This document shows, piece by piece, positions 11,884 to 58,885 of a stretch of 64,000 bases of DNA. This stretch comes from a virus, in IMG/VR virus record IMGVR_UViG_3300012009_000091, positions 103,070-167,069 of that record; one strand, written 5' to 3'. Each line of letters begins with the position of its first letter. Within the stretch, counting starts at the first letter, position 1. Position numbers and translations under genes: made by a program. The notes under the pieces were generated by a model. That model worked only from the letters and a program-made list of their open reading frames with translations. It did no database searches and was not told where the DNA came from.

Positions 11884-12612
11884 ATGGACTTAAGCACAAT
11901 AGACACAAGCAAATTAGAGGCGATCGCAGACTTGCTTCAGCACCAGTTCAGCAAACTGTCTGACAAGTGGACCAAGTGCCAGTGGACCAAGAAGATGGGA
12001 ACCTTGGGTCTCATTGACCTGAAGAACAGGACGGCAGCTGATGTCTATGATCTGATTGTCGGGGCTCGATTTCGTGTCGAAAAACTTCTCTCTACCCTTG
12101 CCGATGCGGGGTACGAGTACAAACTTGTGGTATCTCTGGCTGATGCCGCAGAGTGGGAAAAATATGGGGAGCAAGTTGACGCTTACCTTCGAGATGTTGA
12201 GCGGAGAGCCTATGAGGCGGCGAGGTGTGCTGGAGAACTTATAGAAGGTATCCAGGACCGTGAACTTGCTTCTGCTTCCATAAAGGCGGCGGAAATTTTG
12301 AGACTGGAAAGTGTGCGTCCTTCGGGTCAGTTCGTTTGGAAGAAGTTCTGTCATACTGTCCAAGAGATCATTCGAGCACTTCAGAGAGGGTGGATACCGC
12401 GTTGGACAATTCGAACAGACGATCAACATGTCATTCTCGGAAATCGTCAAGAAGGAAACAGGTCGGAAGAGGTCTACACGGCCTATGAGTGGAATCGAAT
12501 GGAAGGAGGTTTTCCCAGTCCATGTAGTTGGACGATGAAGTTTGTGGGCGATACGGTTCAATGGCTGTTCAATGGCCAAATTCAAGTCGATCCGAAGGTC
12601 GAAGCAGTTTGA
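11884..12612 (+). CDS. hypothetical protein
   Basis: RBS AGGAGG before ATG 11884. Confidence 0.7.
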   Translation: MDLSTIDTSKLEAIADLLQHQFSKLSDKWTKCQWTKKMGTLGLIDLKNRTAADVYDLIVGARFRVEKLLSTLADAGYEYKLVVSLADAAEWEKYGEQVDAYLRDVERRAYEAARCAGELIEGIQDRELASASIKAAEILRLESVRPSGQFVWKKFCHTVQEIIRALQRGWIPRWTIRTDDQHVILGNRQEGNRSEEVYTAYEWNRMEGGFPSPCSWTMKFVGDTVQWLFNGQIQVDPKVEAV

Positions 12613-12761
12613 CTTGCGCTTCTATTTTCAGGAGCTCAGGGTTGTCGGCTTTTGTATAGAAGAGAGCGCTAAATAGCGCTCGTTCTTTTGGGGTCGCGTT
12701 CTGCGGCCCCTCTCTTTACCTTCGATTGTATAAGCAGGTATCACCACGACGAGGAGAAATT

Positions 12762-13142
12762 ATGCGACCGATTCCACAGTGTCTACCACGTTTCTTTTGT
12801 GTCAACATTCCATATTCTGTGCCTAAAGAAGAGATTCCGGACGAGTTTTGGGAGCCCGATCATCCATATCGGCAACCGATGGATATTTGGTTCTTCTTCG
12901 GTGGAGAGACACTGGAGACGGGCGAGAACGGAATACTGCTAACGCTCCAAGATCATACGACGAAGATTTGGCTGGCTCCGAAAAGCGAACTCTCAGAACA
13001 GGACGCCAAGTATGCTACTCACGCCATTGGAAACATTCTGTCGTCATTCGACTTCAACCATGAACACAAAATGGCGATGGCGGCCTATTTGACGGCGGAG
13101 TGGTTTGATCTCATACCGAAGGAGGAAGAGGAGATAGATTAG
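12762..13142 (+). CDS. hypothetical protein
   Basis: GTATAAG at 12728 and RBS GAGGAG precede ATG 12762. Confidence 0.7.
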   Translation: MRPIPQCLPRFFCVNIPYSVPKEEIPDEFWEPDHPYRQPMDIWFFFGGETLETGENGILLTLQDHTTKIWLAPKSELSEQDAKYATHAIGNILSSFDFNHEHKMAMAAYLTAEWFDLIPKEEEEID

Positions 13143-13375
13143 CGCCCTACTACATGCGGCTTCGGAGGTGCAGGCGGTTGTGGTGCTGCCTTTGATTTGA
13201 GTAAACTAGGGCCTGCCAAAGATCCGGCAACAGATCCTCCGATCGCTCCGATTTTGGGTGCTTTCTTCAACAAGGTCTTGCCCGCCAATCCTCCTGCCAT
13301 TCCCCCGATTAGTGATCCAAGCGCGCGCTTCTCTAGAGCTTGTCGCGCCAATTTGATGTACAGTGGGTTAACCAT
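13139..13375 (-). CDS. small Gly-rich putative virion protein
   Basis: RBS AGGAGG; KLA/EKRA motif followed by Gly-zipper segments. Confidence 0.6.
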   Translation of the reverse strand: MVNPLYIKLARQALEKRALGSLIGGMAGGLAGKTLLKKAPKIGAIGGSVAGSLAGPSLLKSKAAPQPPAPPKPHVVGR

Positions 13376-13436
13376 AATTCCGACCTCCTATCGGGATTAT
13401 AATATACTGAGCACATGACGTATACAAGAGGAGAAC

Positions 13437-13661
13437 ATGAAAGTACAACTACATCCGGTCGAGACACGCGTGGTCTGTCCGGTTTGTGTTCGCGAGATTC
13501 CGAATCCTGATCATACCGGAACAGTTTGGACTGAGTACGACTTAACTCGCACCAATGGCGCGTTCTACTGTGAGGTCTGTCGGACTCGATTCACCGAAGT
13601 TCACGTATCCATCGATATGAAGGATCAAGCAGAACATCCTTATTCCGAAGAGAACAGGTAG
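13437..13661 (+). CDS. Zn-ribbon protein
   Basis: CPVC...CEVC; RBS GAGGAG. Confidence 0.65.
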   Translation: MKVQLHPVETRVVCPVCVREIPNPDHTGTVWTEYDLTRTNGAFYCEVCRTRFTEVHVSIDMKDQAEHPYSEENR

Positions 13662-13683
13662 TCAATCAAGAACCAACTTACAA

Positions 13684-13720
13684 GAGTGCGCAGAGGGAAA
13701 CTGCGTACTCTTTCTTTAGC
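13684..13720 (+). terminator. intrinsic terminator
   Basis: GAGTGCGCAG/CTGCGTACTC stem followed by TTTCTTTAG. Confidence 0.65.
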
Positions 13721-13798
13721 TCGTGTGTAAATTGTTTACACAGGCAACTGCGCTATCTAGAATTAGCGGTGGATTTTACATAACTACGGAGGACCCCC

Positions 13799-14764
13799 AT
13801 GAGTGACACTATCCCTTACGGATTTGATTTGGACAGCGCCGTTGATTACAACCAACGTAGAGCAAAGGCTTTAGGTTGGTACGACGCCATCCCTGATCAT
13901 GCTGTTTCAGACCATCCGTGTTTCTTTCATGATCCGGTAGAGGGGAACAATGAAGAGAAGAGGAGGTTTGCCCTCGAGGTTCTCAACTTCCAGAGAAAGG
14001 CTTTCTCAGACACAGCCGAACATGACGGCAAACTGGGACAGGATACGTGGACCCGTTTGCTACAGATCTTTGACAATGTAGACGATGCAGAGAGCTTTGT
14101 TCTCTGGAGTGGCCGGCGATTTGCCACTCCTGAGGCGCACGTGATCTCCTTTGAAGAGTCGAATGGATTCGATCTCCATCGTGCTGGCAATTTCTCTCGG
14201 CGCCCAACGGATATCCGCCTGATTGTCCTCCACTGGGGAGGAAGCACTGTTCATAATCTATATCGCTACTTCAATACTCCTGAACGAGATTTGTCGACTC
14301 ATTTCGGCATTGGCCCGATAGGCGCGTACCAGTTTCTTGATCTCAAACATCGAGCATGGCATGCAGGGTATGTCAATGACTACGCTGTAGGTGTAGATAT
14401 TTGTCAACAGCCGACTATTGAGTATCGCGACTACTATTGTCGCCGCCAAGATTATGACGTTTCGGTTGTACAGAACCCAACGGATCGGGGGAGGACAAAA
14501 ATCTTGTCGCTGGACGTTGCTATTTGCGATCAGACGTGTTGGTTGGTCCTTGAGCTATGTAGAGTCTTGAATATTCCATTGAGGGCTCCTAGAGGCGCTG
14601 ACGGGCTCTCAGAGGACGGGCCGATTTGGCATGGAACTTTCGATCGCGATGTTCTCGATAGTGGTCAGTTCCAAGGTGTAGTGGGTCATCATCATGTCAA
14701 AGAGACGAAGTGGGATATGGCCTGTTGGTGGGATATGATTTTCAAGGGTACAGAACTTAGTTAG
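13799..14764 (+). CDS. N-acetylmuramoyl-L-alanine amidase (Amidase_2), probable endolysin
   Basis: IVLHW...STHFGI...AWHAG..N..AVGVDI...GHHH; upstream FQ..DGKLGQDTW PG-binding-like motif. Confidence 0.85.
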   Translation: MSDTIPYGFDLDSAVDYNQRRAKALGWYDAIPDHAVSDHPCFFHDPVEGNNEEKRRFALEVLNFQRKAFSDTAEHDGKLGQDTWTRLLQIFDNVDDAESFVLWSGRRFATPEAHVISFEESNGFDLHRAGNFSRRPTDIRLIVLHWGGSTVHNLYRYFNTPERDLSTHFGIGPIGAYQFLDLKHRAWHAGYVNDYAVGVDICQQPTIEYRDYYCRRQDYDVSVVQNPTDRGRTKILSLDVAICDQTCWLVLELCRVLNIPLRAPRGADGLSEDGPIWHGTFDRDVLDSGQFQGVVGHHHVKETKWDMACWWDMIFKGTELS

Positions 14765-14939
14765 CTTTGTCCACCTTCTCTACTGCCTCCATTATCTCGT
14801 CTTCCTCTCAAAAGTACGTATAAGCAAGCATACTCGCGTGTCCTTCCGTTCGTTAAGAGAATTGGGATAACGGAGACATCGAATGTCCAGTGCGCGGCAA
14901 AGAGTGGCGTACTATAACTGAGAAGACAAGGAGAAGTAC

Positions 14940-15848
14940 ATGATTAATGACAAGAAGATCTGTTTCTATCACAAGGTAGATCCTGACGGCTGGTGTTCGG
15001 CTGCGATTCTCTATGACTACTGGGGTCGTCGGGATCACGTGTTCTACGGTATTAACCATGGAGACAGATTTCCGTGGGCGCGTATTGACTCGGAAACCGA
15101 GGTCTGGATGCTGGATTTCAGCCTGTCTATTAGCGGTATGATTCGTCTTGCCGAGAAGTGTAAGAGGCTCGTGTGGGTAGACCACCACAAAACGACGCTG
15201 GAAGACAAGCACATCTATGAACCGGGATTCGAGGGCCTGCAACGAGAAGGAGATGCCGGGTGTGAACTACTCTGGGAATTCCTTTACGGCGACGAAGAAA
15301 TGCCGCAAGCCGTGCACCTCATTGGGCGTTATGACGTTTGGAAATGGCATGACGTTCCTGGGTCGCTCGAGTTCACGACAGGACTGCGTAGCAGAGAATG
15401 GGCTTCTCGACCCAAAGACTCTTTTTGGACGGCGCTAATCTCTTCTGAACACCCCGGTCACAATAGTATCGTGAACCACTACATTGAAGATGGAAAACTT
15501 CTACTCAAGTGTCGGAATCGTGACTGGCGGATATACGTTTTGGGACACGCATTTGCTACTACGCTTATCTTGCCGAACAAGTTTGCAGAGTACTCAGTGG
15601 TCGCCTGTAACCGGGGCGGAGTAAACAGCCAGTTCTTTGACTTCAGAGAACTCGAATCCCTGTTTCACTACGTTGATTTTGCAGTGAATTTTGCGTGGAA
15701 ACGCGGACAGTGGAAAGTCGGGCTCTGGAAACCTGATTGGATTGACAACGATATTCACTGCGGAGACATTGCCAAAACCTTCGGCGGTGGCGGGCACGAA
15801 GGAGCCGCGGGTTTCCGGTGTAAGTCCTTACCATTCGAGATCGTCTGA
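14940..15848 (+). CDS. DHH/DHHA1 phosphoesterase
   Basis: YH..D.DG, LDFS, VDHHKT, GGGGHEGAAGF. Confidence 0.9.
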   Translation: MINDKKICFYHKVDPDGWCSAAILYDYWGRRDHVFYGINHGDRFPWARIDSETEVWMLDFSLSISGMIRLAEKCKRLVWVDHHKTTLEDKHIYEPGFEGLQREGDAGCELLWEFLYGDEEMPQAVHLIGRYDVWKWHDVPGSLEFTTGLRSREWASRPKDSFWTALISSEHPGHNSIVNHYIEDGKLLLKCRNRDWRIYVLGHAFATTLILPNKFAEYSVVACNRGGVNSQFFDFRELESLFHYVDFAVNFAWKRGQWKVGLWKPDWIDNDIHCGDIAKTFGGGGHEGAAGFRCKSLPFEIV

Positions 15849-15881
15849 TAACTCTGACACAGCAGTAATAGGAGAAACAAC

Positions 15882-16934
15882 ATGAACGTACATTTCATCT
15901 ACAAGCCGCGCAGTGGAGACCGAGTTTTTGCCATGCGACCGACTCCCGGAATCGCGGTCGTCAAATATGACAACGGCTGCCGGCATGCGGCCGGTGGAAT
16001 TTTGCTCGGGTGGGATGCCGCCCAACCAGGCGAATGGTGGAGGTCCACCGCAAAAGCGGTGGTCAGTGCCGTGGTGGAGTGCTGCGGCGGCCTTGCTTGG
16101 GACGAGCAAGGAACGATCTGGATGATCATCCCGGAGAATGGTGCAGACACCGCCCTACGCCTTATCGAGGAAATCAGGGAGATCGATGTGTCTGGCCAGA
16201 GCGCTGGGTGGCTTGGCAATCGAGTGCGTCTCGGCTTGTGGGTAGAAATCGTCGGTACCCGTCTCGGGTGGGCGGCCGATAGCGGGCCAGCTCCAGTCAC
16301 TCGCCGTCGACACGATGACGGCAAGTGGGAATACATCGCCCGCCCCCCCGGGGCGGTGGTGGTCTGGACGGCTCCGTGGGCGTCCGAGGATGCCTGCGAG
16401 GAGGTCGAGGCGGAGGTCGAGGCGGAGGCGGAGGTCGAGGCGGAGGCGTTGGTCGTTACTCCGACCCTGTTGGAGATGGCGGGCGGAATAAACCTCTGCG
16501 GGCATCATGCCTACGTCACAATCGACATCCTGCATGATCTGCTGTCCCGAGGCATCAATCTCCGGGGCGCAATCCGTGTCTTGCGCGTCGACGCATCCAC
16601 TCCGCAGGAGTGGCGCGATCGCGCTCGAGCCGAAGACGCGGTAATCCGCGAAGCGAGAGAGGACGGCCTCCGGGTTTCCCCGGAACATCTTGCTGCCCAC
16701 CCTGATATCTGCTGGACGGTGGGCACGATACGATCTGAACTGGCCAAAGCTCCGTCCAGCGACGGACTGATCGGCTGCCAGGAGGTCGAGGCGGCGGCGA
16801 ACATTATGCGCGAGGATCGAGTCCGGGCGGTGACGGTCCTGGCACTGCATCAGTGCCAGTCGTACGCCACGTGGGTCGAGCACGCCATCCATGGAATGGC
16901 CGATCTCGCGGCTCCCATGCCAGAAAGGTGGTAG
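15882..16934 (+). CDS. hypothetical protein, paralog A
   Basis: N-terminus nearly identical to the next gene; EVEAEVEAEAEVEAEA linker. Confidence 0.8.
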   Translation: MNVHFIYKPRSGDRVFAMRPTPGIAVVKYDNGCRHAAGGILLGWDAAQPGEWWRSTAKAVVSAVVECCGGLAWDEQGTIWMIIPENGADTALRLIEEIREIDVSGQSAGWLGNRVRLGLWVEIVGTRLGWAADSGPAPVTRRRHDDGKWEYIARPPGAVVVWTAPWASEDACEEVEAEVEAEAEVEAEALVVTPTLLEMAGGINLCGHHAYVTIDILHDLLSRGINLRGAIRVLRVDASTPQEWRDRARAEDAVIREAREDGLRVSPEHLAAHPDICWTVGTIRSELAKAPSSDGLIGCQEVEAAANIMREDRVRAVTVLALHQCQSYATWVEHAIHGMADLAAPMPERW

Positions 16935-28178: not shown

Positions 28179-28414
28179 AGCGGCTTTTACAGGAGTCGCT
28201 GGCGAAGATCAACACATTAGAAAAGCAGATCAACAATCTCATTCAGGCGTACACACAAGTGATGCTGCATGGAGGGGCGGATCCAGACCAGTTGATCGAC
28301 GATCTTTATTTTTTACTGACCTATGAAGTGCCGGGAGAGCCGTCTCCGATGGTTCGGGAAACAATTCAGGCCATCGTCCGAGCAATACAAGAAATACAAC
28401 AGGAGGACCATTGA
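28154..28414 (+). CDS. hypothetical protein
   Basis: RBS GGAG; coupled to the ligase gene. Confidence 0.6.
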   Translation: MSHKIEQVKRLLQESLAKINTLEKQINNLIQAYTQVMLHGGADPDQLIDDLYFLLTYEVPGEPSPMVRETIQAIVRAIQEIQQEDH

Positions 28415-30321
28415 TGGATGTCGAACAATTGGTGCAAAAGATTCAGTACCATCGAGTGAAGTATTGGGCAGGCGAACCCGTGATTTCCGATACAGAGTTC
28501 GATCGGCTCGTCGAACAGCTACGGGAACTCGATCCCAACAATGTCATCCTGAATGAGATCGGGGTGGGGTTCATCGAAGGCCGACGGAAAGTGACTCATG
28601 AAATGCCTATGCTGTCTCTCCAGAAGTGCTACACAGTTGAGGACCTGTTGCGGTGGCGTAACAAGCTGTCGGATCCTGATTTGATTGTTAGCCCGAAGAT
28701 TGACGGTCTAGCTGTGGCGTTGCGTTACCGCAGTGGGACGTATGTTCAAGCCATCACTCGTGGAGATGGGCTAGTTGGGGATGACATCACGGAAAATATG
28801 CGGTTCGTGTCTGGCGTCGCTATGCATATTGATGAAGTTCAGGATATCGAAATCCGGGGCGAAGTGTTTATTCCTCGATCTGTTTTCGAGAACCTGTTTG
28901 CAGAGGAGTATAGCAACCCGCGAAATCTCGCGGTAGGTGCATTGAAACGCGACAACGCCAAAGAGACAGCGAAATTCTACTTGGTTTTTCAGGCCTATGA
29001 TGTTCTGGGAAAAGAGTTTTCTTTCGAGACGACCAAGTTCGACTGGCTGGCTTCAGTCAATTGCGTACCAGTTCCGGTAGAACTCGTTACGTCAGAAAAG
29101 GAGATCCGCGCTTTCCTTTTGACAACGCCTGATCAGTACCTTTATGAGATAGATGGCTTTGTGTTCAAAATTGCGAAGTGCTCTCTTCAGAAAGAGCTCG
29201 GCGCTACACGACATCATCCTCGTGGATCAATGGCGTACAAGCTTCAGGGGGATACCGGTGTGTCGTCAGTCAAGGCAATAGAGTGGCAAGTCGGCCGTAC
29301 AGGGGTGCTGACACCGGTCGCTCAGATCAAGACGATTACACTCTCTGGTGCAGTAATCAACCGAGTTAGTTTGCACAACACCAGTATCATGCGAGAGCTG
29401 GACAGCGATCTCCGGCTCTTGAATGCTTCGGTTCAAATTACGCGGCGCGGCGGGGTGATTCCCTATATCGAAAAGATGTTGACCCCTGGGGAGCCTCTTC
29501 AGGTCCCTCTGTATTGTCCGGAATGCAACGGCATCACATTCTTCGCAGACAGGGACCTGCTGTATGCAGAACACGCAATCGATTGTGCTCCGATTCTCTT
29601 GGGGACTCTGCAGCACTTCCTCAAGGTTCTTCGAGTCAAAGGATTCGGTCCTGCGATTTTGGAATCGTTGATTGAAGGCGAGTTCATTCAAACACCTGCA
29701 GACCTCTTGGGATTGACGGAAGACGACTTGCTATCCGTTGATCGGATAGGCGGAAAGCAGGCGAAGAAGCTTCTCGCTCGACTTCAAGAGGTGCGGCAGG
29801 TCCCTTTGTCAACTTTCCTCGTAGCACTAGGGATTCCCAATCTTGGGATTCAGCTCGCTTCGACATTGGCTGACCGCTACCCAACTTTGGGGGATTTGGC
29901 CAAAGCTAAAGAAGAAGATCTCCTTCAATTGCCTGGGGTAGGTGAGGTGGGATGCCGGATCGTCCAAGAGTGGCTTCCAGCTAAGAAGTACCTTATTCAG
30001 GACTTACTTAGACATATCCAAATCGAAGAAAATGTAAAGGACGAGGAGCCGATTGGGTCACTTCCCCTTGCAAACAAGTCTTTCTTGTTCACCGGTAAGC
30101 TACAGTACGCTACTCGATCTAGCGCTGAAGAGATTATCAAAAATCTCGGTGGGTCAATTGTATCTGCTGTGACTCGCAATTTAGACTATCTTGTAGTCGG
30201 AGAAACGTCTGGAGAAAGTGCCAAGCTCAAGCGAGCTCGAATGGTTCAGAGTGCTAAAGGAGCTCTTGAAATCATTGATGAGGATCAGTTTGCGCTTCTC
30301 GTTGGGAAGCGCAACCTGTAG
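28414..30321 (+). CDS. ligA: NAD-dependent DNA ligase
   Basis: PMLSLQK, KIDG, TRGDG, EIRGEV, NPRN, WQVGRTG, HhH repeats, C-terminal BRCT. Confidence 0.97.
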   Translation: MDVEQLVQKIQYHRVKYWAGEPVISDTEFDRLVEQLRELDPNNVILNEIGVGFIEGRRKVTHEMPMLSLQKCYTVEDLLRWRNKLSDPDLIVSPKIDGLAVALRYRSGTYVQAITRGDGLVGDDITENMRFVSGVAMHIDEVQDIEIRGEVFIPRSVFENLFAEEYSNPRNLAVGALKRDNAKETAKFYLVFQAYDVLGKEFSFETTKFDWLASVNCVPVPVELVTSEKEIRAFLLTTPDQYLYEIDGFVFKIAKCSLQKELGATRHHPRGSMAYKLQGDTGVSSVKAIEWQVGRTGVLTPVAQIKTITLSGAVINRVSLHNTSIMRELDSDLRLLNASVQITRRGGVIPYIEKMLTPGEPLQVPLYCPECNGITFFADRDLLYAEHAIDCAPILLGTLQHFLKVLRVKGFGPAILESLIEGEFIQTPADLLGLTEDDLLSVDRIGGKQAKKLLARLQEVRQVPLSTFLVALGIPNLGIQLASTLADRYPTLGDLAKAKEEDLLQLPGVGEVGCRIVQEWLPAKKYLIQDLLRHIQIEENVKDEEPIGSLPLANKSFLFTGKLQYATRSSAEEIIKNLGGSIVSAVTRNLDYLVVGETSGESAKLKRARMVQSAKGALEIIDEDQFALLVGKRNL

Positions 30322-30325
30322 TCAG

Positions 30326-30352
30326 AAAGCCCTCCTGGAGAGGGCTTTTTTA
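30326..30352 (+). terminator. intrinsic terminator after ligA
   Basis: AAAGCCCTC/GAGGGCTTT followed by TTTAG. Confidence 0.75.
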
Positions 30353-30357
30353 GGTAG

Positions 30358-30455
30358 GCTAAAAGAAGAGTACAAATAGAATTGACTCTTCTTTTACGAA
30401 ATAGAACGTCTCAATCCCCATCTGAACGGGGCACGTAGACTAGCCTTTCTCGTTA
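30358..30455 (-). ncRNA. candidate ~100-nt small RNA
   Basis: GTATAAG motif at 30460-30466 (minus); terminator AAAAGAAGAGT/ACTCTTCTTTT+AG; no ORF between them. Confidence 0.45.
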
Positions 30456-30611
30456 CTTACTTATACCTATTTCCAACGCAAAATGCACCCGCATTCTTGA
30501 CGATCACTTTGTCTCTAGAGGACAATCAAATTGCGGTGAGTACGTTCTGGTCCTCCAGTACTCGTCGTCAGGAGCCCTTGGCCCAGGGCTCCTAACTTCC
30601 TTGCATTGATG

Positions 30612-30646
30612 TTAAAAAGGAAGGGGCCTGACGATCCAGGCCCCTT
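30612..30646 (-). terminator. intrinsic terminator of the island operon
   Basis: AAGGGGCCTG/CAGGCCCCTT stem then CCTTTTT on minus. Confidence 0.7.
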
Positions 30647-30692
30647 GGGTTTGAGTGCAGAAGATGACTAGCCTTCTGCACTCGAGACGACC

Positions 30693-31091
30693 TTAGAGCC
30701 ACCAGTCGCCGCGGTATACGCGGATTTCCTGGCGCTCTTCGGCCTCTTCCTCTTCCTCTGTGTCGGTCCACTTTGAGGCCGTCCAGTACTGGTTCGGTTT
30801 CCACCGAACCTGGACGGTCTCGTGAACCTCTTCTTCCTCTTCCTCTTCCACCACCCACCAAGGTTGGTGGCGGTCGAGGACCCGAACCCAGTCCTGGATG
30901 CTTCGGGCCTCGAGCTCACGCGCCACGCGCGTAACGTGCTCGAGTTCCGCAGTCTGGACCAGACCTATCTGATGTAGGTCTTGCGCGATGCAGGACGCGT
31001 CGCGCAACAAGTCCATTCCGTGCATCCAGGCCCGGATACGCCGGGCGCTGATGACCTTGACCTCCCGTCGGTCGGTTACCGTGATATGCAC
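30693..31091 (-). CDS. hypothetical protein with poly-Glu tracts
   Basis: 132-aa ORF overlapping the end of the upstream gene. Confidence 0.6.
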   Translation of the reverse strand: MHITVTDRREVKVISARRIRAWMHGMDLLRDASCIAQDLHQIGLVQTAELEHVTRVARELEARSIQDWVRVLDRHQPWWVVEEEEEEEVHETVQVRWKPNQYWTASKWTDTEEEEEAEERQEIRVYRGDWWL

Positions 31092-32797
31092 AGTAACTCC
31101 CCCAACGAAGGGGTCAGCCCCTCAAGGCGCTTGGGCATCATCTCGTCGTTGAGATGTGCTCGACGCTCATACGCGTCGTCGAAGATCGTTACGGGCACCC
31201 CGTAACGATCTTCTAGCTCCCCCTGATGAGCTGAGTCATCCCAGGGCCGGGTAACCACGAAGAGACGGACGACTACCATCTCCTCGCTTCTCCAGCCCTC
31301 GGGCCCGGACTCTGTTCGCCCGTATCCCCGCACCTCTCCGATCACTCGTGCGTGGTCGGAGAGGCAATTAATGCCCCACTCCGCGTGAAGCCCGCCCACG
31401 TTTCGCACGCGTGCGGACTCCGGGAAGTGGTGGGCGACCATTACCGGCCGCTCCCAAGCAGTTCCCTGCTGGGGGCTCAGTAATATATCGTCAACCAGAT
31501 TCCACACACGCCAACCGACAAGGGACCCGTCTTCCGGGTCCTCTTTTGGGCGTGCAGCACGGATCTCTCTTTCCCTGACGTCCATGGACGTCAGCAGAGA
31601 ATACCATGCTTTATGGATCTGTGGGCGCAGGGAGCGGATCAGATGCCCTCGCTGGGCCCGGACCAACTTGGCGCGCCGCGCCCTTGAACTTCTGGCCCCC
31701 AGCAGAGGGTCTGATCGGAAGGCACCCGACTCAAGGCGATCTCGCCTCGTCCGCTGCGCGTTCATGGTTTCAGCCATGAACGCCACCAAGTCCTTTACGG
31801 TCTTGATGGCGGCCGTGTGCGTCCTTGGGCTGTTTACCGCCCAGGCCACCCACGATCGAGGCGAGGCATACGCCTCGGCTGCCTCGTGGCATATCTTCTC
31901 CAGGCTTACGGGACCGGCGTCCAGCGTCCAAACGAGGCCGCTTTGCGACCACCATTTGGGGTGAAGGCCGCACTGTTTTATGGTGCGAACCTCTTCGACC
32001 CCGATTCGTAGTCTGATTTTGCCCTTGTCATAGGCAACTTTTACGTCGCCATTGACTATTGCAGTCATCAACTTATCGTCGGGGTCCACCCACCGGAACC
32101 ATTTCAGCCACTTTCGGGCGGGCACGAGTGCCTGCTCTAACTGTGGCCGAATCGGCTGGAGACGCACCCACTCTGCGTGGAGACGCTCCAGCCGTGCCCA
32201 GAGACTCTCATCGTTCGGGCATACCAATTCGTCCCAGACGGCGCGGAGGAATGCGCCGCTCATCCGGGACAGCCGCTTCAACCACACGGTCTTAGTGTCG
32301 TGTGGGAGCGGCATAGGCTCACGCGCCCGGAGTTTCCTGCTCAGGCGCAGGATCGCCCGCACGCGCGTGCGGTTTCCGGGCCAGATGGGGCGTTCTGGCA
32401 GCATCGAGGCTAACGCCTTCGGATACTGCTCTGCCTTGATGCCAAGGCAGAACGCCCTGATCGCGGCTGAAGGGTCACAAGTGTACGGTGACCCCAACCG
32501 CGATGAACGCTGTTGAGTGGCGAGCCAATAGGCCACCCACTCATCCCACTTTTGGATGAGTCGGTTTGGCGGCAGCAGATTCCATCCTGCTTTCGCCAAA
32601 GCCCAGTCCACGCGATCCGCCGACCGGATTATCCCCAAACCTCGGAGCACGATCCGACCGTAGTCGGATGCGCTCTTGATTTTTCGGGCGGGCTTTGGGG
32701 AATAGCGCGCTCGAAAGGCCTCAGCGACAGTCCAGTCGCCGACTAGCCAATCCGCCTCTTCCTGGCGGAGCCAGGCGGCGGATGGAGTTGCACTCAT
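31076..32797 (-). CDS. hypothetical protein; C-terminal GWR...GLHA...VIGEV.G.G...GWR domain
   Basis: 573 aa; RBS AAGGAGGAG; GC-rich. Confidence 0.75.
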   Translation of the reverse strand: MSATPSAAWLRQEEADWLVGDWTVAEAFRARYSPKPARKIKSASDYGRIVLRGLGIIRSADRVDWALAKAGWNLLPPNRLIQKWDEWVAYWLATQQRSSRLGSPYTCDPSAAIRAFCLGIKAEQYPKALASMLPERPIWPGNRTRVRAILRLSRKLRAREPMPLPHDTKTVWLKRLSRMSGAFLRAVWDELVCPNDESLWARLERLHAEWVRLQPIRPQLEQALVPARKWLKWFRWVDPDDKLMTAIVNGDVKVAYDKGKIRLRIGVEEVRTIKQCGLHPKWWSQSGLVWTLDAGPVSLEKICHEAAEAYASPRSWVAWAVNSPRTHTAAIKTVKDLVAFMAETMNAQRTRRDRLESGAFRSDPLLGARSSRARRAKLVRAQRGHLIRSLRPQIHKAWYSLLTSMDVREREIRAARPKEDPEDGSLVGWRVWNLVDDILLSPQQGTAWERPVMVAHHFPESARVRNVGGLHAEWGINCLSDHARVIGEVRGYGRTESGPEGWRSEEMVVVRLFVVTRPWDDSAHQGELEDRYGVPVTIFDDAYERRAHLNDEMMPKRLEGLTPSLGELLCISR

Positions 32798-32889
32798 TTG
32801 TGCTCCTCCTTGGGCGCTTTTGCGCCCAGTTTTTGTCTTCGTTTGATACGTATCCCGTTTATACCAAACGTATCCCTCGTCTCACTACC

Positions 32890-33600
32890 GGGGCTTTGAG
32901 TGTGCCTCCACACTCCCACGTGAAACTCGATTGCGCGAGGTAGGACCATCCTATCCTCTGCAGGTCAGCTTCGTGGCCGATAGCTTCCGAGTATGCTGAT
33001 GATTGACCTGATTCACAGTGTCCAATTGTGAATCGCCATCAGCCGAAATGGGCGTGGCCAGCCCTCATGCAGTAAATTAGTGATCCGGCTTTATTGGGCT
33101 CCGGATTACGTTCTGCATATTGTTTCGTCACTGTGGTGCCACTTTCCACAGCTGTTTCTAGGGCAAGCTTCATCACTAGCTTGCAAGGATGCCTGACAGT
33201 GGACTACTGTCAGACTTTCAGAAGGCTTCTCATCTCATTACTAGAAGCAGGCTAGACTCCGTTCATGTAGACAAGTCGCATCTGTCCTTCTGATAGATCC
33301 GGTGATGTCGACTCTATTCAGAAGGCTCTACACTTCTATAAAGACGGGGGGTTAGTCATCCCCCCGGATGTTGCATCTGGGATGCCTCCCATAAACCTTG
33401 TAGGAAGTCCTACAAAGCTTACGGGAGGCACGCCCCCTTTCGGGGGCGCCTCCTTCTTCCTCATGCCCCAAAGGGGCATCTTGTGCAGCGGTGTCAGAAG
33501 CGCCTTACTGCTTCTGGCCTACTGCTTTGGGACAGCGACCTTTGTTCCGCCTCCCTGGGTGCGTAACCACCCGTCCCCCGTTTTAACGGGGGAGTTTGCC
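32890..33600. ncRNA. long hairpin-dense non-coding tract A (candidate large structured RNA)
   Basis: about 18 consecutive stems, no credible ORF; 22-bp stem at 33383-33430 has 3 G-U pairs on minus; GAAA loop on minus at 33431-33448. Confidence 0.6.
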
Positions 33601-33622
33601 TGTGTCGCGTCATCATCGAGCT

Positions 33623-33907
33623 CTACGCGGACGCCACAGGGGACCAATCCCCTGCGGCGAACAGGACCCCAAAAGGGATCCCGGGAGCCCAAATGAGGAG
33701 GCTGCCATCCGTAAGGATGGCGAGCTCCTCCTCGCCGGGCTCCTCTGCCGGCAATCTGCCGGCAGAGTAGAGCATCTCGATGATCAGCTGAGACGCGTAC
33801 TGATAACTCAGCCGCATCTCATCGCTGAACGCGACCTGTGAGAACGCCACTGGGTGGCACTCCCCACAGGTCGCGATTTCAACGATCGCGATCTCAAGAT
33901 TTTTCAT
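33623..33907 (-). CDS. hypothetical protein
   Basis: RBS GGAGG before MKNLEI; CGEC motif. Confidence 0.55.
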   Translation of the reverse strand: MKNLEIAIVEIATCGECHPVAFSQVAFSDEMRLSYQYASQLIIEMLYSAGRLPAEEPGEEELAILTDGSLLIWAPGIPFGVLFAAGDWSPVASA

Positions 33908-34007
33908 GTTCCTCCCGAACATGAGTTTCGTCCCTCACGCGGAACGGCGGATCGGGCGTATTATAGGGCCGCCCAATCTTCTACCCTCTGCGGCATAGCC
34001 GCATATA

Positions 34008-34103
34008 TGCAAGCCCTGGGAATCGAACCCAGGCGACGTTTGTCGCGTCCTTGGCTTGCGGTATGGGATATTGAGTCCCATCAATGCAACTGGGCAGGTC
34101 TGC
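34008..34103 (-). tRNA. tRNA-like element (non-canonical or pseudo-tRNA)
   Basis: T-arm CTGGG-TTCGATT-CCCAG and 7-bp acceptor GCAAGCC/GGCTTGC-A; no normal D-arm; upstream TGGGA-CTCAATA-TCCCA hairpin (CAA). Confidence 0.45.
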
Positions 34104-34423
34104 ATATTCCTTCTACTAGGCCTTGGGAGTGGGGTGGCGCTTTTCACAGCCTCTCGTGACCATATGGTCAACCGCCTGCTCCGTACCGTTCGATTACTCA
34201 ACACGACACGCTACTTTCGTGTTGAGGGCAACTTTTTCTGACGGGGTATTGCCAAGGTCCCCCATTACGCACCCACACCAAGTTACCCCCATTTTCGCTC
34301 AGGATTTCTCTGAACTTAGGGCCCTGGGCCTTTTGGCCTATACTTGTCTTCAGCTGTTAGGGATAGCTGTTAACCAGGGTTGATGGGATGGTTATACTTG
34401 CCGCCGAATATAGTCGGCGGCGG

Positions 34424-35587
34424 CTATGTTGGGTCGACGGCGATGACCGTCCCCAGCTTCATAGCCGGGGAATGGGTCATCGCCACCGTCGCCCCCACCC
34501 CTGGCTGGTAACAGGCCAGCCACGGCGTATTGTGGTACGCCATGGCTAGACTGATCGTCAGCCAATTGGGGCCTCGTCCACTTAGGACGATCCCCATTCC
34601 CGGCTGCACAGCCGGGGGGGTGACGTCGTTCAGATCGTCGACGGAGAATACTCCGCCGACGATCTCAAACGTGACGACGGCGAACTCGTCCCTCTCCTCA
34701 ACGGAGAAGGACAAGTTCGCCCCAGAGCCTTCAGATGAAGGCTCTTGACACCCGATTGGGACTGTGCCCAATCGGGGGTCGTTCACGCTTGCGGCTGCCG
34801 GGTGGCAGCCGTGAACGACGGACAGACCCAACCACGCGGGGCTGGGTCCGTCAAAAACGACGTGGTCGTCGGCCCCGAAGCCCCACCCACGGAGGGTGGT
34901 GTCGATTTTGGGAAGGTCTGTGCCTTCCCAATTGATCGACGAAACCACCCTGCCGTTGGGCAGGGTCTTCGTTATCGGAGCTTTTCCCAGCAGCTCTGAG
35001 AGCTGCTGGGTGGTGATGGTGGTGTCCATCGCCGTCTCCAGTGTCCCGGCGCTGAAATCGCACCGGGACAAGACCCGCTGGGCCAGTCTTTGCATTACTG
35101 GCCCAGCGTTGACCGTTCCCCGGTGAAGCCCGACAACCGTCCCCTCTAGAGGGTGGGTGTCGGGGGAGACGGTCTCCTCTCCGGCTAGCCGGCTTTTTAG
35201 GAGGGCTATACACCGTAGCCCGAGGTCTTCCCCAAAACGCCGCCACTCGTCCATAGCTTCGTCTTTTGACGAAAGTACTACGAACGCGTCACAACGCTTG
35301 AAAATTTCCTCGTTCTGTGGTGTAATTCGTCCCCCCACATCGACCAGTGTCAGAGGTAGGCCGACATTCTCCAATCCTGTCAGGACATAGTCCATGAATG
35401 AATTGGAAAAGTCGCCCTTACGTCTGATACGCTGGACGAGTTCTTGGGGGGCCGAATTGGCCCACGTACCTTCCCCGTCCGGACAAGCCCGGAACAAGAA
35501 GGTACCTTCCCGTGGAAGCAATTGCTTCAGGGAAGCGAAAAACACCGACTTTCCGGAATGAGGAGGACCGCAGATGATTACTTTCAT
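34424..35587 (-). CDS. csx3: P-loop NTPase fused to two Csx3/Crn3 (CRISPR ring nuclease-like) domains
   Basis: GPPHSGKS, ACPDGEG.W, LVDVGG; Csx3 motifs HGCHPAA...DPRLG and GIVLSGRGPNWL...YH..PWLACY.P..G..V..THS. Confidence 0.8.
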   Translation of the reverse strand: MKVIICGPPHSGKSVFFASLKQLLPREGTFLFRACPDGEGTWANSAPQELVQRIRRKGDFSNSFMDYVLTGLENVGLPLTLVDVGGRITPQNEEIFKRCDAFVVLSSKDEAMDEWRRFGEDLGLRCIALLKSRLAGEETVSPDTHPLEGTVVGLHRGTVNAGPVMQRLAQRVLSRCDFSAGTLETAMDTTITTQQLSELLGKAPITKTLPNGRVVSSINWEGTDLPKIDTTLRGWGFGADDHVVFDGPSPAWLGLSVVHGCHPAAASVNDPRLGTVPIGCQEPSSEGSGANLSFSVEERDEFAVVTFEIVGGVFSVDDLNDVTPPAVQPGMGIVLSGRGPNWLTISLAMAYHNTPWLACYQPGVGATVAMTHSPAMKLGTVIAVDPT

Positions 35588-35589
35588 CC

Positions 35590-36485
35590 TACTCCTCTCA
35601 CCAGAGAGTCATTTGCGCTCTACTCTTTCTGCTTGCACCCTACTGCAAGTGGAAATTTCAAGCTCCTGGGAAGACCTCCCAGTCGGGCAATTGACGAAAA
35701 TTGTTTTTACGTGACGCTCGTCAATTTGGTGCGTCACTATAAATACGCGGTTCTCGCCGCGTAAATAAAAATGGTTTAGCATCTGGTCAGGTAGGAAAGA
35801 CCAGGGATCATCAGGAAGATGATCTCCGCAAAGGACTTGCGGACCGTGCCCCGAGGATCGGGGTCTTTACAGAACTCATCCAGCATGTTGCATGCTGGGC
35901 AACCTACAAGGCGGACCGGGTTCTGATTCCAGTCCGACAGGAGTGCATTACGCTGCACAAACGACCACCATAACCTGGCAGTGGAGTCCGGAAATTCGCT
36001 TCCGGAACGGGTGGATCTTACCGAGTAACCACCATCTCGGCCCATGTTTAATGCTATTGGGGTGCAGGGACCTCTACGCGAGGTTGGCGGTGTAGATTTA
36101 GCTCTACACGAACTGATACTTGGTATTTTAGTCTGTAGTACCTTCAGACTATCCAGCTATGGCACTGGATGGCCAACAATCTAAGCCTGATTGCCCAAGG
36201 CAGCTCTTACCCAGAACTTGGGGAGTTCATACCCAGAACTCATAGGGCCTCCCATTGTAAAGGCGGGGTTGGTGCGCCTGCTCGTATAACTCCCTGAGCA
36301 AGGGGTTGGCACTTGGTAATCTGCCTTAGTGCCAGAGGCAGTTCATAACCCTGAACGGGGGCCTCCCATTGTAAAGGCGGGGTTGGTGCGCCTGGGGAAT
36401 ATTCGTGTGCCGAAGGGTGCGCGGTTGGGATCGGTGTTCTCCTTTTGGAGCCGATGTGCGCAAGTGGCACGTGGTAAGTTCCCTT
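35590..36485. ncRNA. long hairpin-dense non-coding tract C (candidate large structured RNA or leader)
   Basis: more than 20 short stems, pseudoknot, 36-nt repeat pair; GTATAAG promoter at 36491 on minus. Confidence 0.6.
36245..36394. repeat. perfect 36-nt direct repeat x2
   Basis: GGGCCTCCCATTGTAAAGGCGGGGTTGGTGCGCCTG at 36245-36280 and 36359-36394. Confidence 0.95.
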
Positions 36486-36490
36486 AAATA

Positions 36491-36497
36491 CTTATAC
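36491..36497 (-). promoter_or_regulatory. GTATAAG phage promoter motif (one of at least 17 copies)
   Basis: recurrent motif, typically 22-37 nt upstream of start codons. Confidence 0.7.
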
Positions 36498-36517
36498 TTA
36501 TCAGAGTCTTTATGGAT

Positions 36518-36572
36518 ACTAAAAGTTCAGGGTGGAGGTTTACAGAAGTTCCCAGATGCCACCCTGAACTTT
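36518..36572 (-). terminator. intrinsic terminator
   Basis: AAAGTTCAGGGTGG/CCACCCTGAACTTT followed by TTAG on minus. Confidence 0.7.
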
Positions 36573-36574
36573 GA

Positions 36575-36781
36575 CTAACGGCGGTTTTTACGCCGCCGGC
36601 GTCGTCGTCGGGAATTGTTTTCGGAGTGCGCATCCTCCCGACTCAAACGCGCACCCTCTTCTCGAAGTGCTTGGCGCTCCTCTGCCCAGAGGTCGCGCGC
36701 CGGTCCCCGCCGGACCGCGTCGATCACGGCAGGGGCGGCGTGCTTCGCCAGGGCGAGAAGCGCCTTCTTCTTTAGAGACAT
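36575..36781 (-). CDS. small basic protein with Arg tail
   Basis: GTATAAG at 36811, RBS AAGGAGG, own terminator. Confidence 0.7.
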   Translation of the reverse strand: MSLKKKALLALAKHAAPAVIDAVRRGPARDLWAEERQALREEGARLSREDAHSENNSRRRRRRRKNRR

Positions 36782-36811
36782 TTAACCTCCTTGGGTTGTC
36801 TCGTTAGATAC

Positions 36812-37519
36812 TTATACGTTTTGCCAACGAACGCCGGCAACTTGATGATCGTTTACATGTTGTGCCTTGAGTTCACATTGTACGCCGTAGAACGTTGCAG
36901 GACATTGATGGATAGAGGGGTCAAAACACGCCCGGCAGCGAGGCTCATAGATGTCCTCGGCACCCGGAAGAATCCGTTCGGAGGAGATTATCGTGCGGTG
37001 ATTGTAGATCGCTTGTTTTCCGCAGACACAGCACTGTGCGTACTTCATGAAGATTGTGTCTGCTACAGCCATCAATCGTAGAATAGGAAAGAAAGGCTGT
37101 CCTATGTAATCGGACATAAGTCCGACAACATAGACGTTGATACCAAGATGGTTCACTAGTGACATACAGACGTTCACTAGATCTTTGGGGAACATGTGCG
37201 CTTCTTCAATAGCGATGGTATTCACGGAAATGGCTCGTTCCATCTCCATGACGCATTTTGGTATTTGGAGTGGGTGTTCGAGTGGGATAGCTTTCCGAAC
37301 ACGTCCGTTGTGTGTTCGGATGACGTCTTGTCCGTCTCTAACATCCTTCTGGGGCTTGAAGATGGGTATGGCTCTATCTTCGAGGCTGTCGAACAGTAAT
37401 TCGGTTTTCCCTCCCCACATGGTGCCTGTGATTACGGTAAGTATTCCTGGAGTCCGCGTAGACGGTTCATCCATGTTGGATGAATCATTGGACTTTCCAT
37501 TTCCTCGCTCTCGGTCCAT
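36812..37519 (-). CDS. tdk: thymidine kinase (type II)
   Basis: GTMWGGKT, IEEAHMF, GL.SDY.GQPF, CCVCG, YEPRCRAC. Confidence 0.92.
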   Translation of the reverse strand: MDRERGNGKSNDSSNMDEPSTRTPGILTVITGTMWGGKTELLFDSLEDRAIPIFKPQKDVRDGQDVIRTHNGRVRKAIPLEHPLQIPKCVMEMERAISVNTIAIEEAHMFPKDLVNVCMSLVNHLGINVYVVGLMSDYIGQPFFPILRLMAVADTIFMKYAQCCVCGKQAIYNHRTIISSERILPGAEDIYEPRCRACFDPSIHQCPATFYGVQCELKAQHVNDHQVAGVRWQNV

Positions 37520-52099: not shown

Positions 52100-52300
52100 A
52101 CCCTAAGTGCGCATTTCTGCGCACAACTCCTTAGTTCATAACAGGAGCTCCGCTAGGAGTTTCTGTTAGCTTACGTAGGCTAAAAAAGTGAGCACGGTTC
52201 TCTAGGCTGATATGGATGAAGGCCAGTATAGAACTTCTTACCGCATACTAAAAATACGCGGGTCCGACTTACTCCTTTTGTCTCGCCGCGTACTGTAGAG

Positions 52301-52456
52301 TTATGGAGTAGACTTCTTCCGGCCGCCGTTCTGCGCTCGCAAGCGCATGCGGCGGCCGGCTCGCCAATCCTCGACGGCCTCTCGGCCGTGTCGGATCAGG
52401 AGCCCAGCCGCCACACCGCTTGCAAACGCAACGGTGGCGGTGATGAACAGTATCAT
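52301..52456 (-). CDS. 51-aa membrane peptide with basic tail (below track cutoff)
   Basis: MILFITATVAFASGVAAGLLIRHGRE...RKKSTP; GTATAAG at 52479 and RBS GGAGG. Confidence 0.6.
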   Translation of the reverse strand: MILFITATVAFASGVAAGLLIRHGREAVEDWRAGRRMRLRAQNGGRKKSTP

Positions 52457-52658
52457 GTTTCCTCCGTTTCTCTAATTACTTATACAGGATACTAAAAAAC
52501 GGGTGATTTCGTTCCCTTCATTGCGTATCCTTGATTCCGGTTCGACTCTCGAACTCTCCTCACAACTCTTGAGTTGGTTTTGGCAACAAGAGTCCTCACG
52601 GACTTCTTAATACCCTTGACGGGTCAACGGGAATCACCCGCTCGATCTCTCAACTGTC

Positions 52659-52850
52659 CTACAGATCAAGCCAGTTCTTGGCCCGATTGATCCGCCCTCC
52701 GGTTCGGCATCTGTCTTTCTGGCGGCTTGCTTTCACCTTACGCGATGCTTTTTGGGTCTTGTACTCAGACTTCAGCTTCCTCAGTGCAGCATCGGTCCGC
52801 TGTTGAACGACTTTCGCTTCTGCCCGACGGGTTTTTCGCGATCTTGCCAT
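52659..52850 (-). CDS. small basic protein
   Basis: GTATAAG at 52884 and RBS GGAG; K/R-rich. Confidence 0.6.
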   Translation of the reverse strand: MARSRKTRRAEAKVVQQRTDAALRKLKSEYKTQKASRKVKASRQKDRCRTGGRINRAKNWLDL

Positions 52851-58210: not shown

Positions 58211-58885
58211 TTAGCGGCGGGACCGCTTCTTCCTGCTCTTCTTCCGGCTCTTCCTCCGGCCCTCGTCCCGGTCCTCGTCCCGGCGGTCGTTCCGCCGGTC
58301 GACAGCACTCTCTAACCTTTCGACCTGTTTGGCCGTCTCCGTGGCGCTCTGGAACGCCTTGGCCAGGTTGGACTGGCCCAGGCCCACGCTCTCGGCGTGG
58401 GCCCTCAGGTGCTCCCCCTGCGTAGCCACCTCCTGGTGGATGTTTGCCAGGAGGGCCTTCTTGGCATCATCACTCTCCTGCTGTCCCAGGAGGTTGAGAT
58501 GCGCCTCCAGACGGTCATGGGCCTTCTGGAGGGTCGTCAGGCCGTCATTGGACGACCCTAAGCGGGTAAATTCCTGCGTTAGCAGGAGCACCCGCTCCGT
58601 CACCAGGTCTGGCATGGCCTCGACGTGCCCCCGGAGGGCCGCCGTCTCGCAGAGGATATCCTCTGCGAGATCATCGAGGTCGTCTACCTTATGGCGGACG
58701 TCCCCGATGACCAACCGGTTCCAGATCGCCAGGCCGACGCCGGCGGCGCTTGTCACGGCGCCGCCGATGAGCAGGCCCTTGTCGAGCCCGCTCAGTTTTG
58801 TGGTTTGGCCTTGCGGCCGGAGGTTTGTTGCTTCGACACTCTCCCCTGCGGAGGGGAGAGCTGTGACGTTGTTAGGATTTCCCAT
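58211..58885 (-). CDS. TM + coiled-coil protein with basic tail
   Basis: RBS AAAGGAG; GC-rich. Confidence 0.7.
   Translation of the reverse strand: MGNPNNVTALPSAGESVEATNLRPQGQTTKLSGLDKGLLIGGAVTSAAGVGLAIWNRLVIGDVRHKVDDLDDLAEDILCETAALRGHVEAMPDLVTERVLLLTQEFTRLGSSNDGLTTLQKAHDRLEAHLNLLGQQESDDAKKALLANIHQEVATQGEHLRAHAESVGLGQSNLAKAFQSATETAKQVERLESAVDRRNDRRDEDRDEGRRKSRKKSRKKRSRR

Follow-up and report, generated by a model that had tools for sequence, protein, structure and literature searches.

A conserved, hairpin-dense intercistronic tract in a large environmental phage is a candidate new large structured RNA

We describe a stretch of about 750 nt in a large environmental phage, here called Tract A, that is non-coding, structured, conserved, covarying and outside the known RNA families. 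Judged from its sequence, Tract A is a candidate new large RNA. We infer that it is a structured RNA domain within a minus-strand transcript shared by its two flanking genes, a small ORF and a gene for a 573-aa protein, and that it has a role specific to its fold; the chances stand slightly in favour of this reading as a whole. A preliminary description of the same DNA had proposed a large structured RNA or a structured ssDNA element. The structure held, conservation and covariation were added to it, and no known family was matched; of the two forms, RNA seems the likelier.

Genomic context of Tract A

The window analysed here comprises the last 64 kb (64,000 nt) of a 167,069-bp phage record in the IMG/VR virus collection. 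The record carries a terminal repeat of 55 nt, whose resemblance to an assembly overlap suggests a circular or circularly permuted genome. Assemblies of PRJEB25599, an Andean microbial-mat metagenome, contain the same DNA. Since the contigs encoding an identical 573-aa protein were 100% identical to the window, no variation was gained from them.

Tract A lies within a block of minus-strand genes that is bordered on one side by the NAD-ligase gene ligA (28411–30321, plus strand) and on the other by the thymidine and thymidylate kinase genes. Between ligA and these nucleotide-kinase genes, positions 30560–36500 (minus strand) form an accessory island with a GC content of about 0.6 versus 0.5. 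Read along the minus strand, the block has the promoter motif GTATAAG (36491) at its head, followed by an 89-aa ORF (35776–36045), a P-loop-2xCsx3 gene (34424–35587), a second tract (Tract B), a small ORF of 94–99 aa (33623–33907), Tract A, the orphan gene for 573 aa (31076–32797) and a 132-aa ORF, and it ends with a terminator (30646–30621). The gap that holds Tract A (32798–33622) is ORF-free, with the small ORF directly upstream and the 573-aa gene, whose mRNA is itself hyper-structured, directly downstream. What the preliminary description had not seen is that the tract sits inside an operon and is not clearly a stand-alone gene.

Pfam and PHROGs gave no match for the orphan proteins of the island. 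A word-indexed search of 5.8 billion clusters returned the 573-aa protein itself as its sole match, and an Atlas search gave no usable match. The protein is weakly similar (E 3e-6) to a PcfJ-like protein at the same place in L053, a related phage fragment (JGI 3300009149 contig) with the same gene order and a 56% identical ligase. The small ORF has one homologue family, P0244, at 41% identity.

Relatives of Tract A

One diverged relative of Tract A was found, L054 (Logan assembly), together with a JGI contig, L055, that is identical to L054 over the tract; both were reached via family P0244. Their gene order is that of the phage: first the terminal part of the 89-aa ORF, next the small ORF, then a Tract A homologue of full length and finally the beginning of the 573-aa gene. 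The 89-aa ORF is open in both contigs and has a conserved core, NQNPVRLVGCPACN..DEFCKDP. It has no obvious Shine-Dalgarno sequence, its region shares 88% nucleotide identity with L054 and 81% with L053, and paired hairpins lie inside this region at 35806–35843.

The other searches added little. Tract A had no match by blastn against the phage collection, IMG/VR searches guided by the 573-aa, ligase and Csx3 proteins gave no close relative, and an alignment-based scan gave one weak locus. Exact-word scans of JGI and IMG/VR with Tract A segments returned zero hits in viral contigs (two scans) and zero in metagenome contigs (two scans). A search with a two-sequence nhmmer profile revealed no additional copy, whether in the phage genome, L053 or the other loci retrieved. 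When the tracts were compared with the flanks of csx3 homologues by blastn and tblastx, csx3 itself was all that they had in common.

Tract A is non-coding and matches no known RNA family

No ORF spans Tract A under table 11, table 4 or with TAG read as Q, and no open frame is common to Tract A and its L054 homologue. Ends excepted, the indels between the two sequences measure 1, 1, 1, 1, 2, 1 and 1 nt, which shows the tract to be non-coding. Stretches without a stop that reach 101 codons do occur in the L054 tract in minus sense and would suit a decayed gene. We nevertheless give next to no probability to gene decay, or to palindromes that follow one another by chance, as the tract is conserved above its intact neighbours, has frameshifting indels and compensatory changes, and folds with a z-score of about -12.

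Rfam gave no match at the gathering score in the whole window, noise only at E up to 10 in 32600–34300, and no match in the loci of the relatives. The models for GOLLD, ROOL, OLE, HEARO and raiA returned nothing at E up to 10 in 32600–34300 or at E up to 0.5 in 30300–36900. This cmscan comparison, in which no Rfam match to Tract A was found, leaves the novelty put forward in the preliminary description standing.

Several other kinds of element were considered and rejected. A group I or group II intron was dismissed on the lack of any Intron_gpI or group-II match and because the ORFs on either side of the tract are distinct genes and not the exons of a split gene. For an array of intrinsic terminators, the loose consensus was found at one minus-strand and one plus-strand site, and the other stems have no U tails. 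REP/BIME, MITE and CRISPR-repeat mimics were likewise set aside: the stems all differ, there is no direct-repeat family and no CRISPR-DR match, and Tract A occurs once in the phage genome. The terminator-like hairpin on the minus strand, at 33345–33366, lies inside Tract A and could split it into a 3′ tail and a separate leader.

Tract A folds mainly as a string of local hairpins

We counted perfect hairpins with stems of at least 7 bp. The gap of 32798–33622 contains 12 of them, or 14.5 per kb, compared to 1.17 per kb on average over the genome and 0.31 per kb once the sequence is shuffled. Its minimum free energy is -335.4 kcal/mol on the plus strand and -357.9 kcal/mol on the minus strand, with z-scores of -11.7 and -12.05, respectively, against dinucleotide shuffles. 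All stems listed in the preliminary description were found in their places. They include a 22-bp stem at 33383–33430, whose three non-Watson-Crick positions are indeed G.U on the minus strand only, and the next hairpin (33431–33448) does have a GAAA loop on that strand. The conserved element extends over about 32835–33612 (~750 nt), slightly wider than the 32890–33600 first described.

Most stems are 7–9 bp long, almost all are perfect Watson-Crick, and the loops show no enrichment of GNRA or UNCG. Twenty-one local hairpin modules supply about 90% of the folding energy, and longer-range pairing contributes -32 kcal/mol compared to -21±3 kcal/mol in module-permuted controls (z -3.4). Because the energy comes mostly from local modules, Tract A is mainly a hairpin string with a few enclosing helices. 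The word 'ornate' in the preliminary description, taken as a multi-junction tertiary fold, fits poorly with this local energy; what stands of it are a few closing helices with compensatory changes.

Tract A is conserved in sequence and pairing

Tract A and its L054 homologue are 76.9% identical over 815 aligned columns. The flanking genes are less similar, with nucleotide identities of 55.3% for the small ORF and 61.5% for the 573-aa gene, and their third codon positions, at 45–46%, are close to saturation. The small ORF shows coding-like identities of 0.55, 0.66 and 0.45 at the three codon positions, and the 573-aa gene has an N-terminal homologue in L054 with 59% amino acid identity.

The RNAalifold consensus in minus sense contains 225 pairs, of which 30 are changed on both sides. 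As this count is biased by construction, we took the structure predicted for one sequence by itself and examined how the other sequence fits it. The minimum-free-energy structure of the phage alone, tested on L054, showed 22 compensatory double changes compared to 7.7±2.2 in the null, and the reciprocal test with the other sequence's structure showed 19 compared to 6.9±2.2; the null consisted of 2000 re-pairings that keep the pair type, with a maximum of 16. Broken pairs in the one-sequence structure test numbered 40, compared to 57.6±2.8 in the null. Among 100 pairs common to the consensus folds of both strands, 21 are changed on both sides. The homolog covariation that the preliminary description had looked to as a check on its structured element is thus present in L054, along with conservation. 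Since two distinct sequences are known, the covariation rests on one pairwise comparison.

Hairpins of the two neighbouring coding regions differ from each other in this respect. Those of the 573-aa gene are not positionally conserved in L054 (17 compensatory changes compared to 12.7±2.9), and those of the small ORF are (18–20 compared to 8.5–10.4). Positional and sequence conservation together set Tract A apart from generic coding-region hairpins. With stems and linkers both constrained, Tract A probably does something that depends on its fold and is not mere filler. The equal rate of 0.23 at which its paired and unpaired columns evolve counts against this reading. Identity above that of the flanking genes, the indels and the compensatory changes indicate a selected structured non-coding element. 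From this single comparison of two lineages, we read Tract A as being under purifying selection on both sequence and pairing.

The consensus of Tract A proper (32835–33612, minus strand) has about 30 helices, mostly local hairpins. The strongest covariation is seen in the hairpin at 33191–33215, where 5 of the 9 pairs are changed on both sides. The long stem at 33384–33429 (19–22 bp, with 3 G.U pairs on the minus strand in the phage) has 2 compensatory and 4 one-sided changes, and the 8-bp GC hairpin that follows it (33430–33449) has 3 compensatory changes; its GAAA loop is not kept in L054. Four hairpins are enclosed in a multi-helix domain at 33467–33609, closed by helices between 33597–33609 and 33467–33478. 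Two compensatory pairs support its closing helix 33605–33609/33467–33471, and two more lie in its inner hairpin at 33495–33516. A nested domain at 33044–33127, with the ATGCAG...CTGCAT stem, an inner CCGG hairpin and a second small hairpin, has 3 compensatory pairs (33066–33119 with the inner hairpin).

Two elements near the 573-aa gene concern expression signals. A GC hairpin at 32811–32828 overlaps the Shine-Dalgarno sequence AAGGAGG (32805–32811) of this gene, an arrangement that is the same in L054. The hairpin at 32835–32875 (12 pairs, 1 compensatory and 2 one-sided changes) contains a promoter-like GTATAAA (32858–32864), which reads GTGTGAA in L054 while the surrounding helix is kept. 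An internal promoter at 32858 is thereby weakened as a candidate: as the motif is not conserved and sits in a conserved helix, Tract A is most simply part of one transcript.

The hairpin excess extends over the whole island, including its coding genes

We counted 50 perfect hairpins in the 6.3 kb of 30300–36600. From 29.9 to 35.9 kb their densities are 6, 6, 6, 14, 7 and 7 per kb; the density in Tract A is about twice that of the coding parts of the island (6–8 per kb). We then compared genes with synonymous-codon shuffles that retain protein and codon usage. The z-scores for sense and antisense were -14.3 and -6.8 for the 573-aa gene, -14.5 and -13.6 for csx3, -7.4 and -10.3 for the small ORF (99 aa), and -4.5 and -3.8 for the 132-aa ORF, compared to -0.5 to -2.5 (sense) for most control genes. 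The thymidine kinase gene, which lies outside the island, has a sense z-score of -3.8, beyond the control range. G.U stems in the phage island show no strand bias (18 versus 18). The structured tract of the preliminary description is real, and what had gone unseen there is that it forms the densest part of an overprint that covers the island and its coding genes.

L053 is informative here. At the same locus it has 9, 5, 7 and 5 hairpins per kb and different genes, and its PcfJ-like gene has z-scores of -13.7 in sense and -7.7 in antisense. Its island (12000–16200, after the ligase gene) includes ORF-poor gaps of 0.43, 0.98 and 0.45 kb; the 433-nt gap at the place of Tract A has no detectable homology to it.

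The transcripts of the accessory island appear as a whole to be selected for hyper-structure. Tract A could be no more than a generic armour, i.e. the untranslated part of transcripts that are selected for double-strandedness, with no job specific to its fold; such transcripts might live longer, resist single-strand-specific RNases or escape RNA-guided (type III/Cas13) recognition. Target RNA structure lowers the activation of type III complexes by orders of magnitude in vitro (PMC8682760), which makes such protection plausible for the coding overprint. The island-wide excess in the coding genes agrees with this account, as do the density of L053 despite its different genes, the 9 hairpins of csx3 compared to 1 each in three homologues that encode the same or similar residues, and the peak of hairpin density in Tract A, where there is no coding constraint. 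Protection of this kind, however, needs no particular sequence, whereas Tract A, with its linkers counted in, exceeds the flanking genes in identity by a wide margin (77%) and, in contrast to the 573-aa gene, keeps its hairpins in position. It would also leave 750 nt of non-coding sequence in a compact genome unexplained. We therefore consider generic protection a possible but rather unlikely account of Tract A and prefer a domain with a fold-specific role.

The overprint was laid over a conserved csx3 gene

The P-loop-2xCsx3 gene (34424–35587, minus strand) is of the AAA-Csx3/Crn3 type (Pfam Cas_csx3, E 2.6e-25). Its protein has 868 homologues, the best being 61% identical, and aligns to the family without gaps. 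In the codon alignment, the same residues (e.g. TLPNGRV) are encoded in the homologues by non-pairing codons. Because homologues lack hairpins at the same residues, the hairpins were superimposed, within the phage lineage, on a gene for a conserved protein. Inheritance of the hairpin density with csx3 from a donor was rejected, given the homologues without hairpins and the hairpin-dense island of L053 with different genes. The csx3 family is GC-rich relative to the host genome in most loci examined. In this phage, csx3 and its neighbours have been rewritten into chains of perfect hairpins with the conserved residues unchanged. This wider result may matter more than Tract A itself; it is a sign that the structure of mRNA or DNA is under strong selection throughout an accessory locus.

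The csx3 gene belongs to a cassette (33987–35823, minus strand) that also includes a leader and Tract B. It is absent from L054, which joins the equivalent of 35824 to 33986, so the cassette was either inserted in the phage or lost in L054. The upstream junction lies in the 3′-terminal part of the 89-aa ORF, and the C-termini that this ORF encodes in the phage and in L054 are not the same. At the edge of Tract B, 22 nt from the cassette edge, lies a tRNA-like minihelix (34009–34059, minus strand) with an acceptor stem, one hairpin and a T-arm containing GGTTCGATTCC. It has weak, sub-threshold matches to the tRNA-Sec and mascRNA models; a tRNA scan of the window (ARAGORN) found none. Repeats that may mark cassette borders also occur around csx3 homologues: a 164-nt direct repeat (96% identical) flanks the homologue in L010, and the flanks have a 36-nt repeat in L019 and a 19-nt repeat in L004.

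Similar islands surround csx3 homologues in Patescibacteria

Several csx3 homologues are found where MAG contigs labelled Patescibacteria, otherwise AT-rich, become GC-rich and dense in hairpins. The Saccharibacteria-labelled contig L052 switches at 10.5 kb from 31–43% to 53–62% GC, and its hairpin density changes from mostly 0–2 per kb (7 in one bin) to 6–14 per kb. The GC-rich island of L052 (10500–17666) is more than 7 kb long and consists of orphan genes and csx3; within it, several gene starts are immediately preceded by a copy of the hairpin GGCCAGCT-cta-AGCTGGCC. Regions surrounding the rpoB matches in the same Patescibacteria genomes have 0.2–1 hairpins per kb, and we therefore rejected hairpins as a genome-wide trait of these Patescibacteria.

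G.U stems in these islands number 37 versus 9, 20 versus 5 and 21 versus 5 in sense versus antisense, compared to 2–5 on either strand after shuffling. This sense-strand bias points to selection at the RNA level there. The phage island resembles the Patescibacteria islands in its GC richness relative to the genome, its synonymous hairpin chains over coding sequence and its long structured untranslated stretches. It differs in having no sense-strand G.U bias, and the sequence conservation of Tract A is far above the need of a purely structural role. The finding links the phage to the GC-rich, hyper-structured islands of Patescibacteria.

A broader reading would make the phage island a counter-defence locus and a counterpart of the Patescibacteria islands. 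Its transcripts, as nearly continuous dsRNA, would survive or evade type III CRISPR and its collateral single-strand RNases while the Csx3 ring nuclease and its neighbours are made, and Tract A, a new large RNA, would form a particle with the two conserved flanking proteins. We regard this as unlikely. The island-wide overprint makes it possible to test how RNA structure bears on survival when immunity targets RNA.

The strand of Tract A

The preliminary description had been cautious about the strand, and rightly so, since tests based on wobble pairs are symmetric. G.U-containing stems number four on plus and two on minus, non-Watson-Crick pairs flanked by Watson-Crick pairs are of minus type in 17 cases and of plus type in 15, a further strand comparison gave wobble counts of 43 versus 45, and the helix edges of the strand-neutral core show 9 minus-type versus 18 plus-type wobbles. 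An old RNA made from one strand would not usually show such symmetry, and an element that acts as DNA or on both strands would account for it equally well. Context, with both flanking genes on the minus strand, and consensus energy (-309.7 on minus versus -260.5 on plus, a lead of 49 kcal/mol) lean towards a minus-strand RNA. The minus reading also fits the lower single-sequence energy on that strand (-357.9 versus -335.4) and the stronger structure in sense than in antisense in the large island genes (the 573-aa gene and the PcfJ-like gene of L053).

An RNA from the plus strand, or RNAs from both strands, might for example regulate the 99-aa/573-aa operon in antisense. Folding of the plus strand is nearly as strong (z -11.7), several stems have G.U pairs on plus only, and the wobbles at the core helix edges are mostly of plus type. 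No plus-strand promoter motif, however, is seen in or beside Tract A, the plus consensus is worse by the above 49 kcal/mol, and all neighbouring genes are on minus; we consider a plus-strand product very improbable.

Alternatively, the element could work at the DNA level, its inverted repeats forming hairpins or cruciforms when the DNA is single-stranded or supercoiled; it might, for instance, be a signal for replication, priming, packaging or injection, or a site of recombination. Stems that are nearly all perfect Watson-Crick, wobble statistics that are equal on both strands and compensatory Watson-Crick changes, which are strand-neutral, would all be expected of such an element. Yet Tract A is present in a single copy within a block of genes that all point the same way, coding sequence carries hairpins of the same style with a sense bias in the two largest genes, and G.U stems in the Patescibacteria csx3 islands are four-fold commoner on the sense strand. 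The lack of a Tract A homologue in the syntenic L053 speaks against a core signal for replication or packaging in this group of phages. On balance, a DNA-level element seems to us quite improbable.

A possible role and comparison with known systems

As a minus-strand RNA, Tract A would be transcribed as an intercistronic part of a transcript that includes the small ORF and continues into the 573-aa gene, and about 20–30 hairpins with a few enclosing helices would make up the RNA. Our best guess is that the RNA forms a stable domain, perhaps released from the operon transcript by processing, and that this domain acts with the two conserved flanking proteins or controls expression of the downstream gene.

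GOLLD (RF01998), ROOL (RF03087), OLE, HEARO and raiA are large 'ornate' RNAs of bacteria and phages, a class of about 0.6–0.8 kb with many helices and no known function. Tract A is like the GOLLD/ROOL class in its size, phage setting, many helices and conservation of both sequence and structure. It differs from all five in matching none of their covariance models and in having simple perfect hairpins, not elaborate junctions or pseudoknots, and from GOLLD and ROOL also in being intercistronic, not clearly a separate gene, surrounded by a hyper-structured island, and known from two lineages. Only a handful of large structured RNA families of this class have been described, none of them functionally understood. 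If Tract A is an RNA, it would be a new large structured RNA family in a big environmental phage.

Intercistronic hairpins for processing or stability are familiar from polycistronic phage mRNAs, as in the RNase III sites of T7 and stabilisers of the REP/BIME type. Like the T7 sites, Tract A lies between genes, and its 22-bp stem is long enough for RNase III; most of its stems (7–9 bp) are too short. Moreover, it has about 30 helices over 750 nt, not one or two, and no repeat family. The injection-stop region of T5, another large phage, is a kb-scale non-coding region rich in inverted repeats. Tract A is like it in this general character and differs in lying within an operon and in being missing from the syntenic L053. 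For hyper-structured genes such as those of Patescibacteria, engineered 'superfolder' mRNAs are a man-made analogue.

Other features of the window

The leader downstream of the promoter motif GTATAAG (36491) contains a perfect 36-nt direct repeat (36245–36280 and 36359–36394, 114 nt apart). Outside the island, an ORF-poor gap at 52100–52726 folds strongly (z -5.3 and -6.2). An orphan gene at 58211–58885 (minus strand, GC 0.64) has synonymous-shuffle z-scores of -7.2 in sense and -7.9 in antisense, and GTATAAG motifs crowd its region.
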